From UHGV virus genome UHGV-0151217: a stretch of DNA of 32,488 nt; one strand, given 5' to 3'. Source of the stretch: a virus. The notes under the pieces are model-generated. The model saw nothing but the letters and a program-made list of their open reading frames with translations. It was not told the DNA's origin and did not search any database. The translations under genes were made by a program, and so were the position numbers. Of this stretch, positions 1,665-10,675 are shown piece after piece (position 1 is the stretch's first letter; each line of letters starts with the position of its first letter).

Positions 1665-3706
1665 TGTTTTATTCAGCCAATGAGCTGGCCGGTCTTCCTC
1701 GTTTGCCCGGTACAGTTCAGGGGGTGCGATGGACGCTCAATCGGATCACAGAGACGCACCCGGAATGGAAGCGCAAGCGTGAAGGCACAAAAGCATTCGA
1801 GTATCACATCGACAGCCTGCCCGCTGAAGCGCAGAAAGTTTTACGTAAGCGCCTGACTCATCAGGTCCTGGAAGATGCACAACTGCCCGCCGTGGTTGAG
1901 CAGAAGGCAGTTAAAAACGTCGCCGTTCGCGATGAACTGGAAGTGATGGTCAAATGCCCGGAACTGGCATTACGCGAAGTCCAGGCACTGACCGACAAGC
2001 AAAAGGCCATTGCTGATGCGCGGATATTGCTGGCTACTGAAGTGCATAAACTGCGTGAATACGCCGGAATGACCAGGAAGGCCGCGTTAAAGCACATCGT
2101 TGATGGTGTGCGCATGGGGGCGTTACCTGACCGCATTATCGAAGCAGCGAATACTGCAAATGCACGTCAGGGAAAGCGAACCGGTGTCAGCACCGGCAGC
2201 CTGGATAGCTGGTACTCCAGCTGGGTGATGGCGCGCGGTGATGCCAATCAGTTACTGGCGTTACTGGCTCCCGGTCATCATAAGGGAACTCCGTGGGAGC
2301 AGGTCTGGTGGCTGAGCGATTTCTTTATGTTCTATCGCTCATGGAAGCGCCCGACCGTTGAATACGCTTATCGCGAGTTTTCAGCCTGGTGGCATGAGAA
2401 ACACGCGAATGATGCGGGAATGCTGGCGGCACTGCCTTCAGTTCACGCAGTAAGACGAGTGTTAAGCAGCGTCCCGGTGATTGTTAAGGAGCGTTTCCGC
2501 TCCACAGGTTCAGCCTGGCGTTCGCTCAATCCCTTTGTGCGGCGCGAGTGGACATCATTACCGGTTAATGCGGTATGGGTCGGGGATGGTCACTGTATGA
2601 AAATGACCGCGTTTAACCCCCTGACCGGCAATATTTTCCGGCCAGAAGTGACGCTGGTTATGGATGCGGGGCAGCGCTTTGTTGTGGGCTGGTCACTGTC
2701 CCTGTCGGAAAACGTGATAGCCGTTGCTGATGCGTTGCGTTACGGCATGGCACAGCACGGGATACCGCTGATTTATTATTCCGATAACGGGGGCGGCGAA
2801 AAAAACCGGGTGCTTGATGCCGATATTACCGGGATTCTGCCCCGGCTGGGTGTGGAGCATCACACGGGGATACCGGGTAACCCGCAGGGGCGCGGGGTAA
2901 TAGAACGGGCAAACAAAGGAATACCCAAAGACGTGGCACTGAGTTTCCAGACGTACTGCGCAAAGGATGCAGACAAGGAAACCGTAATGATGCAGCAACG
3001 GATTATGCAGTCGGCCATTAAGGCCACCCACAAAGGGAAAGAACTGACAAAACGGCAGGTTAAGGCGAGGGATGAAATCCCCACCTTTGAGCAACTGATG
3101 GCCGCCATAGAGCTGGAGGTCAGACGCTATAACAACCGGCCACACAGCAGCCTTCCCCGCAAAGAGGATGGCGAATATTACAGCCCGGCAGCGTATCGCC
3201 GGAAACTGATAAAAGAGCAGAATGTTGAAATTGATTTTCTGTCGCAGGAAGAACTGCATGAAATGTTCAGGCCGGAAGTGACGCGCAAAACATTTCGCGG
3301 GGAAATTCAGTTATTCAACAATATTTATTACTCGTATGAACTGGCCGCAGAGCACGGGAATGAAGTCAGGGTCAGTTACGATATTCATGACGCAAACAGT
3401 GTCATTGTCCGTCGGGCTGATGGCTCTTATATCTGCGATGCCATCTGGAACGGCAATAAGGTTGATGCCTTCGCTAAACCAGTTATCGAGCAAAAACTGG
3501 AGAAACGCGTCAGAGGCCGCATTGCACGGGCCACGCAGAAAATCGAAGAGGCTAAACGCGAGCTTACCCCGGCTATTACGCAGAAATCTGAGTTTAATTT
3601 TGGATTTGGTCTGGAGCGCCCGGAGAAAAAGGAAAAAGAAGAACTTTATTTATTCGCATCTGAACGCGAGCGCAATTTAAAGAAAAACGGCACAAACAAC
3701 CGTTAA
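1664..3706 (+). CDS. DDE transposase (MuA-like)
   Basis: 680-aa ORF immediately after ner with a TAATG stop/start overlap. Size and position match phage Mu transposase A. Confidence 0.85.
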   Translation: MFYSANELAGLPRLPGTVQGVRWTLNRITETHPEWKRKREGTKAFEYHIDSLPAEAQKVLRKRLTHQVLEDAQLPAVVEQKAVKNVAVRDELEVMVKCPELALREVQALTDKQKAIADARILLATEVHKLREYAGMTRKAALKHIVDGVRMGALPDRIIEAANTANARQGKRTGVSTGSLDSWYSSWVMARGDANQLLALLAPGHHKGTPWEQVWWLSDFFMFYRSWKRPTVEYAYREFSAWWHEKHANDAGMLAALPSVHAVRRVLSSVPVIVKERFRSTGSAWRSLNPFVRREWTSLPVNAVWVGDGHCMKMTAFNPLTGNIFRPEVTLVMDAGQRFVVGWSLSLSENVIAVADALRYGMAQHGIPLIYYSDNGGGEKNRVLDADITGILPRLGVEHHTGIPGNPQGRGVIERANKGIPKDVALSFQTYCAKDADKETVMMQQRIMQSAIKATHKGKELTKRQVKARDEIPTFEQLMAAIELEVRRYNNRPHSSLPRKEDGEYYSPAAYRRKLIKEQNVEIDFLSQEELHEMFRPEVTRKTFRGEIQLFNNIYYSYELAAEHGNEVRVSYDIHDANSVIVRRADGSYICDAIWNGNKVDAFAKPVIEQKLEKRVRGRIARATQKIEEAKRELTPAITQKSEFNFGFGLERPEKKEKEELYLFASERERNLKKNGTNNR

Positions 3707-5487: not shown

Positions 5488-6132
5488 ATGACGACTGAAA
5501 ATAAAGTTAAGCAATACACGAAAACTCAAGCGCCTGAAGGTTATTGGGTGGATGCACGTGGCGTAATGACACCTGAAAGCCTTATCAAAGATATTGACCG
5601 CGACCGCGAGCAGCTGGTCGGTGAGCTTGTGGAGATGGTGATTGCTGCCTCCGCCTCACTACGTGAACTGAAACTGCGTGCGTTTGGTGATATTCAGGCG
5701 TTTATTGACCTGTCGGCGGAGAAATACGGCGCTGTGAAAGGCGGCAAAAAAGGCAATATCACGCTTTACAGCTTTGACGGGCGATACAAGATTCAGCGCG
5801 CCATGCAGGACCGTATCGCGTTTGATGAACGCATTCAGACCGCGAAGTCGCTGATTGATGATTGCCTGGCTGACTGGACGGAAGGTGCGCGCCCTGAAAT
5901 TAAAGCCATCATTAGCGAGGCATTCAGCACGGACAAGGAAGGCAACATTAACACAGGGCGCGTTCTGGCCCTGCGTCGCCTCGAAATTGAGGACGAACGC
6001 TGGAATAACGCCATGATGCTGATTGGTGAAGCCGTCCAGGTGATTGGCAGCAAGAGCTATATTCGTGTGTATGAGCGCGTTGGTGATTCTGATGAATACC
6101 GCGCAATCCCGCTTGATATTGCAGGGGTTTAA
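5488..6132 (+). CDS. Hypothetical protein (possibly DUF3164-type, as found in Mu-like prophages)
   Basis: 214-aa ORF with RBS GAGGT upstream. The family assignment is from memory of the profile and is uncertain. It is not Gam-like by eye. Confidence 0.65.
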   Translation: MTTENKVKQYTKTQAPEGYWVDARGVMTPESLIKDIDRDREQLVGELVEMVIAASASLRELKLRAFGDIQAFIDLSAEKYGAVKGGKKGNITLYSFDGRYKIQRAMQDRIAFDERIQTAKSLIDDCLADWTEGARPEIKAIISEAFSTDKEGNINTGRVLALRRLEIEDERWNNAMMLIGEAVQVIGSKSYIRVYERVGDSDEYRAIPLDIAGV

Positions 6133-7441: not shown

Positions 7442-8152
7442 ATGAAAAATAAATACATCGCCAAAATTAAAAAGCTGTTACGCCTTGCAAGAGGGACATC
7501 AAGCCCGGAAGAAGCCGCTAACGCTATTGCAAAAGCCCAGGCTTATATGCGCCAGCATGGTATCAGCGAAAACGACGCGGAATTGTTCGACATTCAGGAC
7601 GCTGCCAGCGCGGGTGCGCCGAGTGATGCCAGTACACCGCCGCGTTATATGCACATCCTGTGTGACCTGGTCTGTAAAGCCTTCGGTGTCGAGTGTTACA
7701 TCTCCGGCGAATACCGGGCTTCTGGTTCACTCAAACGTTACGTTCGTTTTTATGGTCCTGACAGCCGCCCGGAAATCGCGGCCTACGCGTTTGATGTGCT
7801 TTCCCGTCAGATGATGGCAGAGCGCAAGAAATATCAGGATAAACACTGCAAACGTTGCGGTCCGTCCACGCGGGTGGCCCGTGGCGACCAGTTCTGCGAA
7901 GGCTGGGGCTTTGGTGCCCGTGATGTCATTGCGGTGTATGACGTCTCCCCGGAAGAAAAAAGCCGCCTTGAGCTTTACAGAAAGAACCTGCACAGCACCA
8001 AGGGACTGCGCGACGGGGATATGCGCACCGCTAAAGCGTGCCGGGGTGCAGAGTCTGCCGCTACAGCCGGTTTTATCGCCGGGAAAAACGCCAGACTGCA
8101 TCAGGGGGTTAATGGTCAGAGCAACAAAACGCTGGCACTGGGGAGGGTGTAA
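7442..8152 (+). CDS. DUF2786-like protein (phage accessory protein of unknown function)
   Basis: N-terminus KIKKLLRLARGTSSPEEAANAIAKAQAYMRQHGI matches my memory of the DUF2786 signature. Central cysteines (HCKRCG ... QFCEGWG) suggest a metal-binding module. Confidence 0.7.
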   Translation: MKNKYIAKIKKLLRLARGTSSPEEAANAIAKAQAYMRQHGISENDAELFDIQDAASAGAPSDASTPPRYMHILCDLVCKAFGVECYISGEYRASGSLKRYVRFYGPDSRPEIAAYAFDVLSRQMMAERKKYQDKHCKRCGPSTRVARGDQFCEGWGFGARDVIAVYDVSPEEKSRLELYRKNLHSTKGLRDGDMRTAKACRGAESAATAGFIAGKNARLHQGVNGQSNKTLALGRV

Positions 8153-8154
8153 CG

Positions 8155-8382
8155 ATGGCTTTTAAACTTCTCAGTGTTACCGAAGCAATATACCAGCCGC
8201 CCGGAGAACGCCACGAATACAGGATGAATGACGGTAGCGCGGCGGTTGAGTTCCCTGAATATCCGGGGGCTTCCCGGTGGCGGTTCTATGACAGTGCGGG
8301 ACGCCGGATTATTAAAAGAACCGTGCACAACGCCATGAAAGCTGCTGTAGAACGTCACAAAAGAAGGTTTAACTGCAAATGA
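8155..8382 (+). CDS. Hypothetical protein
   Basis: 75-aa ORF with RBS GGGAGGG. Packed tightly between neighbours. Confidence 0.55.
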   Translation: MAFKLLSVTEAIYQPPGERHEYRMNDGSAAVEFPEYPGASRWRFYDSAGRRIIKRTVHNAMKAAVERHKRRFNCK

Positions 8383-9198: not shown

Positions 9199-9381
9199 AT
9201 GAAAAACCGTAAAGCAAAAATTCTTTTGACCTGTAGAAACGCTCGCGGCGTCCAGCAATGGCTAAAACTCAGTAACCGCAGAATGGGTTTGTTCACAAAC
9301 ACAGCTGATATTGTGATGTGTTCCCTTAACAAGCCCAGCGCAGCCCAAAATCGCTGGAAGAATCACACTAACGCAAAGTAA
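9199..9381 (+). CDS. Hypothetical small basic protein
   Basis: 60-aa ORF with RBS CAGGGGAA. Confidence 0.45.
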   Translation: MKNRKAKILLTCRNARGVQQWLKLSNRRMGLFTNTADIVMCSLNKPSAAQNRWKNHTNAK

Positions 9382-9399
9382 TTAAATAATAACCAACAG

Positions 9400-9445
9400 C
9401 AGACCAAAACATATGTTTTGGTCTGCCAAAAATGATGTTTTGGTC
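9400..9445. promoter_or_regulatory. Operator-like site: 26-bp perfect palindrome plus a third half-site
   Basis: CAGACCAAAACAT|ATGTTTTGGTCTG (9400-9425) and a further GTTTTGGTC at 9437-9445, just downstream of an AT-rich -10-like stretch (TAATTAAATAAT) and directly upstream of ATG 9449. Confidence 0.4.
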
Positions 9446-9448
9446 ATT

Positions 9449-9727
9449 ATGAAGATTGAACAAATCGGAATGGCAGCTTTCAGGCAACAGGCTGAAAGCG
9501 GTGGCGTGGATGAGTTCGTCGTGCAGCGGTTCGGGGGTGTGTATCACCTCTTCGCTGTGAATCGCCGCGCCGGGGTGTCCTATTTTCTACAGGAACGCCG
9601 TGGCGATTACAAGACGTGGCTGTCTCTTGACCGTGCCGCCGCGTTCCTGTCGGGGATTGGTGTTTCACGTTTTACCGTGCGTTTTGAGGATAACAAACAT
9701 GCAGAAAAAGATGATCGGGGCCATTAA
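9449..9727 (+). CDS. Hypothetical protein (start uncertain)
   Basis: ORF open from 9413 with in-frame ATGs at 9413, 9449 and 9470 and no clear RBS. 3' end overlaps gemA by 29 nt. Confidence 0.4.
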   Translation: MKIEQIGMAAFRQQAESGGVDEFVVQRFGGVYHLFAVNRRAGVSYFLQERRGDYKTWLSLDRAAAFLSGIGVSRFTVRFEDNKHAEKDDRGH

Positions 9728-10118: not shown

Positions 10119-10145
10119 AGCCCCTGCCTTGCAGGGGCTTTTTTG
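10119..10145 (+). terminator. Rho-independent terminator after gemA
   Basis: AGCCCCTGC-CTT-GCAGGGGCT hairpin followed by TTTTTT. Confidence 0.6.
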
Positions 10146-10207: not shown

Positions 10208-10675
10208 ATGCAGACCTTCAGTGAAACAGATCTTCGCGATGCGCAGGCACTGCTGCCCGATTCCGTGCAGCAACTGATTAGCGTGATTGGCTTCCCCGCC
10301 ATGACCCGGTTGATTCGTTCTTTTGGTGGCGTGACGTTAAGCGGTAAAACCGGCGCACACGCCGAACGTACTGGCGGTGTCCATGCCCTGTTACATGACG
10401 TGCTGACCGAAGACGAAATCAACAAACTGATCCGCTTTCTTGGCGGTGCTCCGTTTTACATTCCCCGTTGCGATCATGCGTTACGTGCTCTGCGTAACGC
10501 CCGTTTTATGGCTGATTTACAGCAGCATATCAGAGACGGATTTTCACACCGGCAGGCGCTGGCACTGCTTTGTCCCCGTTACGGGATTTCAGACCGGTAC
10601 GCATGGCAGCTGATACACCGACGACAAAAACAGACTTCGCTGAAAAGCCCCACCCAGGTGGGGCTTTTTGATTAA
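10208..10675 (+). CDS. Mor/C-family transcriptional activator of late (or middle) genes
   Basis: C-terminal LIRFLGGAPFYIPRCDHALRALRNARFMADL...YGISDRYAWQLIHRR aligns with the Mu Mor/C HTH region (...HLGGGQVYIPRG...). Which of Mor or C it corresponds to is unresolved. Confidence 0.8.
   Translation: MQTFSETDLRDAQALLPDSVQQLISVIGFPAMTRLIRSFGGVTLSGKTGAHAERTGGVHALLHDVLTEDEINKLIRFLGGAPFYIPRCDHALRALRNARFMADLQQHIRDGFSHRQALALLCPRYGISDRYAWQLIHRRQKQTSLKSPTQVGLFD
10646..10670 (+). terminator. Rho-independent terminator at the end of the Mor/C-family gene
   Basis: AGCCCCACC-CAG-GTGGGGCT hairpin followed by TTTTT, overlapping the last codons. Confidence 0.55.

Follow-up and report, generated by a model that had tools for sequence, protein, structure and literature searches.

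The window analysed here is a stretch of 32,488 nucleotides from the viral genome UHGV-0151217, read on one strand from 5' to 3', and represents a Mu-like E. coli prophage with its left end near position 280. Directly upstream of a 92-amino-acid (92-aa) open reading frame (ORF) in the early region lies an array of four alternating half-sites. As judged by comparison between lineages, this array is a conserved cis-acting element made of two dyads of 18-20 bp with a centre-to-centre distance of 22 bp (some two turns of the helix), and it is most likely a control site for the adjoining ORF. It is a new instance of a cis element of a familiar type, be it a dyad array resembling an operator or a translational operator, and the small protein to which it is linked is uncharacterised. 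The most likely mechanism, which we put forward tentatively, is that the array serves as a double-stranded DNA binding site for a symmetric, sequence-specific protein controlling expression of the ORF.

Architecture of the array

The longest perfect inverted repeat in the window was a 28-bp palindrome, GCAGACCAAAACAT|ATGTTTTGGTCTGC, located at 9399-9426 (14+14). Against its arm of 14, the longest arm in 40 dinucleotide shuffles averaged 8.7 and never exceeded 11; calculated analytically, the expectation was 1.2e-4. The palindrome is not a product of chance. An earlier description made from the letters alone, here called the sequence-only reading, had recognised a perfect palindrome of 26 bp, which lies inside the 28 bp found here. 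It had also described three half-sites, all of which exist, but it overlooked a fourth, GCCAAAA at 9425-9431.

The four half-sites are copies of ACCAAA/TTTGGT, named L1, R1, L2 and R2, which alternate in orientation and are arranged in two 22-bp units. Unit 1 (9403..9424, plus strand), which is enclosed by the palindrome, consists of L1 (ACCAAAAC, 9403-9410), the centre ATAT (9411-9414) and R1 (GTTTTGGT, 9415-9422). Unit 2 (9425..9446, plus strand) consists of L2 (GCCAAAA), a centre at 9432-9437 and R2 (GTTTTGGT, 9437-9444). The second dyad, CCAAAA-N6-TTTTGG at 9426-9443, is imperfect and is formed by GCCAAAA together with GTTTTGGTC (9437-9445). Positions 9426-9445 (CCAAAAATGATGTTTTGGTC) are an 85% direct repeat of 9404-9423 at a spacing of 22 bp. 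The start codon of the ORF, ATG 9449, is 3 nt past the last half-site, and unit 2 sits where relatives have a Shine-Dalgarno (SD) sequence (CCGGAATGG / AAGGAATGG). A possible fifth, degenerate half-site, ACCAA, is present at 9392-9396.

The exact 11-mer ATGTTTTGGTC occurs three times in the window, always within the array, and copies with two mismatches were found elsewhere in the window at chance level. The dyad CCAAA-N8-TTTGG was detected in the 32.5-kb window only at 9404 and 9426. The heptamer ACCAAAA occurred eight times in the window outside the array, compared with 5.5 expected by chance.

Conservation across lineages

Loci were gathered from genomes, IMG/VR, metagenomes and Logan assemblies, giving 28 distinct upstream sequences (loci are labelled L) in eight lineages: the E. 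coli type, L024, L025 with L026, L038 with L039 (Leminorella), L007 (Intestinirhabdus), L035, L036 and L037. All eight shared the layout of two units of approximately aCCAAA-N8-TTTGGt with a start-to-start distance of exactly 22 bp, a distance also kept in an array that lacks the ORF (L046, see below). The ATG of the ORF was 21-29 nt from the start of unit 2 as a result of indels in the spacer, and the end of the array was 2-7 nt before the ATG. The spacing between the units was thus constant although the spacer to the ATG varied.

The bases CCA and TG(G) were invariant in every unit, corresponding to window positions 9404-9406, 9408, 9419-9420, 9427-9428 and 9441-9443. In alignment A4 these are C9404, C9405, A9406, A9408, T9419 and G9420 of unit 1, and C9427, A9428, T9441, G9442 and G9443 of unit 2 in the alignment. 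The centres varied freely. The unit 1 centre (9410..9415) reads CATATG in the window, with the variants TATATG, AGTATT, CATGTT, CATGTG and CATACG, and CATGTA in L024. The unit 2 centre (9432..9437) reads ATGATG, with the variants GTGATG, GTAGTG, GCGATG, GCAATG and GTAATG.

Over the eight lineages the mean pairwise identity was 0.76 for the arms and 0.77 for codon positions 1+2 of the ORF, compared with 0.40 for the centres and 0.47 for ORF position 3. Within the E. coli clade (24 distinct sequences) the nucleotide diversity (pi) of the arm cores was 0.006, with 1/28 sites segregating, while ORF positions 1+2 had a pi of 0.013, ORF position 3 a pi of 0.074, and the centres of units 1 and 2 a pi of 0.161 and 0.221, respectively. 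This comparison indicates that the arms are under strong purifying selection at the nucleotide level and that the centres are free, even hypervariable. Conservation by simple inheritance was rejected as an explanation, since the centres have diverged to the neutral level and the arms have not. Within the E. coli clade both 6-bp centres (9410-9415 and 9432-9437) also change at two to three times the rate of synonymous sites in the neighbouring gene, which could reflect a mutation hotspot in a hairpin loop or diversifying selection.

Conservation of the half-sites might also arise from an overlapping gene. In L025, L026, L038 and L039 the array overlaps the last ~10 codons of a genuine gene for a Cys-rich protein of 124 aa. 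This gene ends with a stop codon inside unit 2, and the half-sites in its frame read as the codons N/D-Q, F/Y-G and P-K-stop. In the other lineages this frame was open for only 16-35 codons, and it was closed in five lineage groups. Codon periodicity was absent in the array (majority counts of 6.1, 5.6 and 5.6) and present in the ORF (6.8, 6.9 and 5.2), and the third positions C22, T37 and A46 of the array were invariant while the encoded residues varied. The half-sites as mere codons of the upstream gene were therefore rejected. Conservation of half-sites can be confounded in this way by the 3' end of an overlapping coding region, and the analysis shows a test for such an overlap.

No copy of the 124-aa gene was found in the window. 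A 19-codon open frame, PTADQNICFGLPKMMFWSL*, at 9393..9452 on the plus strand, with no start codon before 9432, corresponds to the C-terminus of that gene and may be either its remnant or the frame into which the gene extended. The 124-aa protein itself (L038 2611-2985; L025 2611-2985) carries the pattern CxxCGCDD...AC...PCxW...CSxCAE and had no match in Pfam or NCBIfam. Its stop codon is 15 nt before the start of the ORF in L025 and L038, an arrangement that suits translational coupling.

Linkage of the array to the 92-aa ORF

The gene order of the prophage is CI-type repressor, Ner-like helix-turn-helix protein, transposase A, B, DUF3164, DUF2786, DUF4752, GemA and Mor (10208-10675). The 92-aa ORF (phrog_7844; 9449..9727, plus strand) precedes gemA (PF06252; 9699..10112, plus strand), which overlaps its 3' end, and the array was always directly 5' of the ORF in the array-bearing family. 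Related DNA was present in 75 complete E. coli genomes, many of which match the window only from 9328-9395 onward; E. coli E2348/69 is a strain with the module. Relatives with other upstream genes start matching at 9328, 9346, 9382, 9383 or 9395, which defines a mosaic-junction zone at 9328..9398. The array, the ORF and gemA were all kept in the six E. coli loci fetched (6/6), across three different upstream contexts.

Where unit 1 begins on the left, and exactly there, identity between lineages climbs from a background of ~0.22 to 0.55-0.67. Since homology between lineages starts at the left edge of the array, the array marks the 5' boundary of a module made of array and ORF. In L037 a terminase gene instead of gemA is downstream of the array and ORF, and in L038 an additional ORF and an HNH gene stand between the 92-aa ORF and gemA. 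Because the ORF and the array persist when gemA is replaced or distanced, the array belongs to the ORF and not to gemA, which is downstream context and no constant partner. The 92-aa ORF was the only gene present in all loci of its family that bear the array. By these comparisons, the array is the 5' edge of a small mobile module consisting of the array and the 92-aa ORF.

A 17-base pattern returned 70 matches in IMG/VR: 21 from the known family, 48 without a fourth half-site and one genuine orphan (L046). A search with a single-unit pattern gave only scattered matches at chance level. The orphan array reads ACCAAAAC-GATC-GTTTTGGT-AA-GCCAAAAC-AACA-CTTTTGGT (5939-5982, minus strand) and is located in the nin region of a lambdoid phage, adjoining a toxin-antitoxin operon of the Doc (death-on-curing) type. 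A mosaic junction lies 12 nt past this array, about where the ORF would start. At the equivalent locus of E. coli SMN013SH2 (L111 2639-2658) only one unit was found, so that the copy number shifts by 22 bp. No protein common to the window and to L046/L111 was found when a shared binder was sought. The orphan may be a remnant of the module without its ORF, or it may point to a host binder. Beside it, the stretch from the putative promoter of the toxin-antitoxin operon to the ATG of that operon holds more half-sites, TTGGTGCGTTGGCCTTGCCAAAAG.

The 92-aa protein

The product of the ORF has a basic core and a conserved loop of Arg, Lys and aromatic residues, ERRGDYKxW. Its predicted fold is beta-alpha-beta-beta-beta-alpha-beta, the nearest fold being that of an RNA-binding ribosomal protein (eL38-like), and neither a helix-turn-helix nor a ribbon-helix-helix was seen in the predicted model. 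Sequence searches in Pfam, PHROGs, NCBIfam and the PDB assigned no function to it; the sole match in those searches was a weak one to ParC (IncP-9) with an E value of 0.003, and the ParC family is itself without known function. The family is very small: HMMER found 13 proteins in 5.8 billion sequences, and eight representatives were found in 1.8 billion. No match was obtained by tblastn against 50,697 phage genomes, and P0014 and P0015 drew no match when scanned against the viral collection.

In RefSeq/PGAP and in many database entries the ORF begins at ATG 9413, in the centre of the palindrome, which gives a 104-aa protein (locus L001 2034-2348). This in-frame ATG is not conserved, being lost or frame-shifted by the centres CATGTT, AGTATT and CATACG, and the distant homologues all begin with MK(I/N)E. 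The true start is likely to be at 9449, giving 92 aa, and the analysis thus corrects a probable misannotation in which the 104-aa protein starts at the palindrome centre.

DNA-binding site or RNA structure

In the mechanism that we favour, two dimers would bind next to each other on the same side of the helix and thereby govern how the ORF is expressed. From that position they could also control transcription of the early operon into the ORF and gemA, so that the array would act as an autoregulatory or roadblock-type operator. The sequence-only reading had called the array a binding site for a repressor or activator; a protein-binding array is plausible, given the invariant arms, the free centres and the fixed 22 bp, whereas the phage regulators that it named gained no support (see below). 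The ORF product is the candidate binder because the ORF is the sole gene in all loci with the array and because the repressor, Ner and Mor/C are without support. It would be the most economical candidate, and the alternative would be a host protein conserved across Enterobacterales. What the sequences show is the array itself with its nucleotide-level conservation, its fixed phasing and its linkage to the ORF; the three elements of this mechanism, namely the binding of a protein, DNA rather than RNA as its target, and the identity of the binder, are inferred.

A DNA site is favoured by the behaviour of the arms. The ten core arm pairs showed no two-sided change in the 28 sequences (0), and departures from the consensus break the pairs. 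The identity of the core bases is thus conserved and not just their pairing, which favours a sequence-specific DNA-protein site over an RNA structure. Proteins that bind RNA hairpins usually read the loops, and conserved stems with a hypervariable centre are a pattern of recognition through the major groove of DNA. Inverted-repeat half-sites around a tolerant centre were found here, and the adjacent sites are an integral number of helical turns apart. The conserved identity of the arms, the free centre and the two-turn phasing together make up the signature of a symmetric protein reading double-stranded DNA.

The strongest alternative, which we regard as a real but lesser possibility, is an RNA-level element in the early polycistronic mRNA. 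The four complementary arms would fold either as two adjacent hairpins (L1:R1 and L2:R2) or as R1:L2 nested inside L1:R2, and both folds would hide R2 at the ribosome-binding site of the ORF. In L025 and L038 translation of the upstream gene runs through the array and ends 15 nt short of the ATG, and there such a structure would impose coupled translation. At loci with a different upstream gene, the translation rate of the ORF or the stability of the mRNA would be set by the structure, possibly together with a bound protein or with RNase III. The position of the array speaks for this alternative: in each of the eight lineages (8/8) only 2-7 nt separate the end of the array from the ATG, R2 overlaps the SD position, the SD (GGA) is inside unit 2 in L025, L038, L007, L035 and L036, and the 124-aa gene reads through the array with its stop in unit 2 in L025, L026 and L038. 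In the E. coli clade the plus-strand RNA forms a strong hairpin (z-scores of -5.0 and -3.9) with a nested alternative that is nearly iso-energetic, and the ORF is almost without an SD (free energy, dG, of -2.2 compared with -5.4 to -11.8 for neighbouring genes), so that local structure would matter for initiation. The distant leaders also fold slightly better than shuffles in every case (z-scores of -0.6 to -2.1), five pairs in unit 1 show two-sided changes, and the nearest predicted fold of the ORF product is that of a protein that binds RNA.

However, the stability of the stem does not appear to be conserved. In L024 and the E. coli clade the dG of the unit 1 RNA fold was about -15 to -20 kcal/mol, and in L025 it was -8.7, but it was only -2 to -5 kcal/mol in L007, L035, L036, L037 and L038, and R1 is lost in L037 and L038. 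The five pairs with two-sided changes are all peripheral (innermost or outermost), the core pairs never covary, and unit 2 showed no covariation above controls. Changes of the G.U type in unit 1 numbered 6 on the plus strand and 11 on the minus strand, which gives no wobble bias on the plus strand, and the loops are the least conserved part. No Rfam family matched: a scan of the window with Rfam 15 gave nothing at the gathering score, and the best permissive match reached 20.3 bits against a threshold of 55.8.

Several observations weigh against a DNA-binding site controlling the ORF. Operators normally have a nearby promoter under their control, and no promoter is conserved next to the array. 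A strict position against the start codon, over the SD site, is what one would sooner expect of a translational mechanism, and in L025, L026, L038 and L039 the array is within the coding region of the upstream gene. The missing compensatory changes could also be explained if each arm pairs with two alternative RNA partners, and the constant 22-bp spacing could partly reflect a mere lack of indels. Remote homologues of the ORF (25-40% identity, in Yersinia, Vibrio and other elements) are without the array, and the orphan array of L046 has no ORF homologue within 600 nt downstream.

A more specific form of the DNA-binding reading, which we consider rather unlikely, is that the 92-aa protein is a nucleic-acid-binding autoregulator of an undescribed fold class (eL38-like in its predicted model and distantly ParC-like) that binds the tandem dyads of its own gene. 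The array and the ORF would then form a self-contained, horizontally mobile regulated cassette, acting as a gate in the early operon before gemA and mor. If so, the cassette would tune the early transcription or translation that reaches the activator of the lytic cascade.

Unlikely alternatives: recombination, internal promoter and terminator

It is distinctly unlikely that the array has no regulatory role and is instead a structural or recombinational junction that promotes module exchange, kept or regenerated by template switching, with the 22-bp duplication arising by replication slippage. Mosaic junctions do lie directly upstream of the array in the Mu-like prophages and directly downstream of the lambdoid orphan L046, the number of units differs by 22 bp between L046 and L111, and the centres outpace synonymous sites, as expected of a mutation hotspot in a hairpin loop. 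Nevertheless, purifying selection on the arms is as strong as on nonsynonymous sites over deep divergence, and the array is known with one gene family and one orphan and was not found at other module junctions in IMG/VR.

The sequence-only reading had placed the array right after an AT-rich stretch resembling a -10 element, at a promoter internal to the early region that would be controlled by the phage repressor, Ner or a Mor/C-family protein. The stretch is indeed there (AATAAT, 9385-9390), and with ATCACA at 9362-9367 it forms a -35/-10-like pair, ATCACA-17-AATAAT (9362-9390, 9/12), that ends 13 nt before unit 1 in the window. In a uniform promoter scan of 12 contexts, -10-like hexamers ended 10-13 nt before unit 1 in 4/6 E. 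coli-clade contexts, with GATAAT and CATAAT at about the same place in some relatives. However, the match in the window is specific to one upstream context and sits in mosaic DNA that differs between relatives, and a promoter-like element was absent in 7/12 of the contexts scanned (L005, L006, L025, L038, L007, L036 and L037), with none consistently placed. The match of the window is missing in L005, L006 and all distant lineages, and no distant lineage has a -10-like hexamer at that distance from unit 1. The claim of an internal early-region promoter was not borne out.

Control by the named regulators fared no better. The dyad is absent from the repressor/Ner control region, which carries other motifs and a single ACCAAAA heptamer, and from the rest of the 32.5-kb window, including the stretch immediately after mor, the expected place for a Mor-dependent promoter. 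From the coordinates, a dyad centred at -43.5, as for Mor/C-type activators, would place the transcription start inside the ORF. Identical half-sites over eight lineages are not what one would expect of regulators that diverge as much as those of different Mu-like phages. Phage Mu has no such array before gemA, and the array tracks the ORF and not gemA. An operator for the repressor, Ner or a Mor/C-family activator at an internal sigma-70, Pgem-like promoter is therefore very unlikely.

An intrinsic terminator, closing the upstream 60-aa gene or serving a minus-strand transcript, is extremely improbable: a scan flags a minus-strand stem at 9428-9397 with a weak T-containing tail, TTGGTTATTA, and the stop codon of the 60-aa gene is 18 nt upstream of the hairpin, but the upper half of the stem is A/U-rich, no U-tract follows it on the plus strand (as the sequence-only reading had rightly held in setting a simple terminator aside), no minus-strand gene converges on the array, the hairpin is conserved with the downstream ORF at loci without the 60-aa gene, and the genuine terminators nearby (10119-10145 and 10643-10672) have G+C-rich stems followed by T runs.

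Comparison with known systems

Tandem dyad-symmetric operators are known from lambda cI (OR1-OR2), 434 and P22 c2, and ArgR binds two ARG boxes with a spacing of 21 bp. Two dimers that bind cooperatively usually occupy adjacent sites with such a spacing of about two turns. The array resembles tandem repressor operators in its sites of 18-20 bp, its conserved outer arms with a free centre and its centres about two turns apart. It differs from them in that no promoter overlaps it, that it adjoins a start codon and that in some lineages it falls within coding sequence. Unlike for phage repressor operators, only two sites are present in the phage, both in the array, and the cognate protein is a candidate only.

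Known translational operators include the MS2 coat-replicase hairpin, the two-hairpin thrS operator bound by dimeric ThrRS, the RNase III site of the lambda N leader, and Mu Com/mom. The array is similar to these in being directly 5' of a start codon over the SD, with two hairpin-forming units and one linked gene, and it is similar to translational-coupling systems in that the upstream gene is translated through it in one lineage group. In contrast to translational operators, the stability and pairing of its stems do not appear to be conserved, and the sequence of the stem, not of the loop, is conserved.

GntR/FadR-type operators (PdhR, UxuR/ExuR) have TTGGT-N2/3-ACCAA cores. The R1-L2 junction of the array fits this pattern as TTGGT-N2-(A/G)CCAA in most lineages (L025, TTGGTGAACCAA). 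However, the flanks of the array are reversed (T-rich 5' and A-rich 3'), the junction in the window has G instead of A, L037 and L038 have lost the junction, and none of the nearby genes encodes a regulator of this type. We know of no consensus site of a host regulator, among those of FadR, PdhR, UxuR/ExuR, RutR, NtrC, TyrR, LexA, CRP and others, that fits both the spacing and the flanks of the array.

The semi-essential early region of Mu-like phages, and how the expression of gemA and mor is set, is largely uncharacterised. The array resembles the Mu gem region in lying in the semi-essential early region just before gemA and mor, and in suggesting a separate control within the early region. 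According to Paolozzi and Ghelardini (1992), as cited in PMC3820752, the gem operon of phage Mu is constitutive in lysogens. Unlike the window, Mu contains nothing homologous to the ORF or the array, and a different region of ~275 bp with an antisense gp15 is found instead. Expression of Mu gem is thus only a loose analogy to the array. In the Mu space before gemA (L040 1397-1733, corresponding to Mu 7896-8232), the antisense gp15 has its own ribosome-binding site, and a 10+10 palindrome, GGCGGTGTTG|CAGCACCGCC, is present.

The analysis pins down both a short conserved cis element and its partner gene, giving the exact coordinates, the invariant bases and the variants that occur naturally. If the ORF product binds the array, a small regulator of unusual fold would be added; if it is not the binder, the element would point to a host factor acting on prophage early operons.

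Other features of the window and related loci

The 60-aa gene upstream of the array (9199-9381, phrog_1380) is a separate mobile gene carried by only some relatives of the prophage. Its DNA has ~74% identity to Stx-converting phages (933W L0068 and VT2-Sakai) and P1-like phages, and 90% to two other coliphages.

At the left end of the prophage (280-430), three ATTCTGGGCG repeats at about 285, 358 and 408 are presumably transposase-binding sites. Immediately before the ner-like gene lies a dyad of 18-22 bp, GGATAACAC-GGCG-GTGTTATCC (1379-1400), which probably serves the early promoter region as an operator.

The segment 10119-10178 contains, directly after gemA, a strong intrinsic terminator, AGCCCCTGCCTTGCAGGGGC, followed by six T's. 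A good sigma-70-like promoter, TGTACA-16-TATAAT (10/12), comes after this terminator in the segment and just before mor. In the textbook picture of Mu, mor is the tail of the early operon; because of the gemA terminator and its own promoter, mor may be transcribed separately here and not as that tail. The second-longest inverted repeat of the window, AAAAGCCCCACC-CA-GGTGGGGCTTTT (10643-10672), is followed by T's and is a terminator overlapping the last codons of mor.

A literature search for the array sequence returned no papers. Next to the single unit of L111, an unannotated unit resembling a small RNA was seen at 2672-2769 (plus strand). It combines an extended -10 element (TGTTAAAAT) with a hairpin at the 5' end, an AU-rich segment and a terminator that has eight T's. 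In Rfam it gave only a sub-threshold match (anti-hemB, E value 0.11), which spans exactly the unit. The segment is present in 1213/5426 complete E. coli genomes, with no feature annotated.

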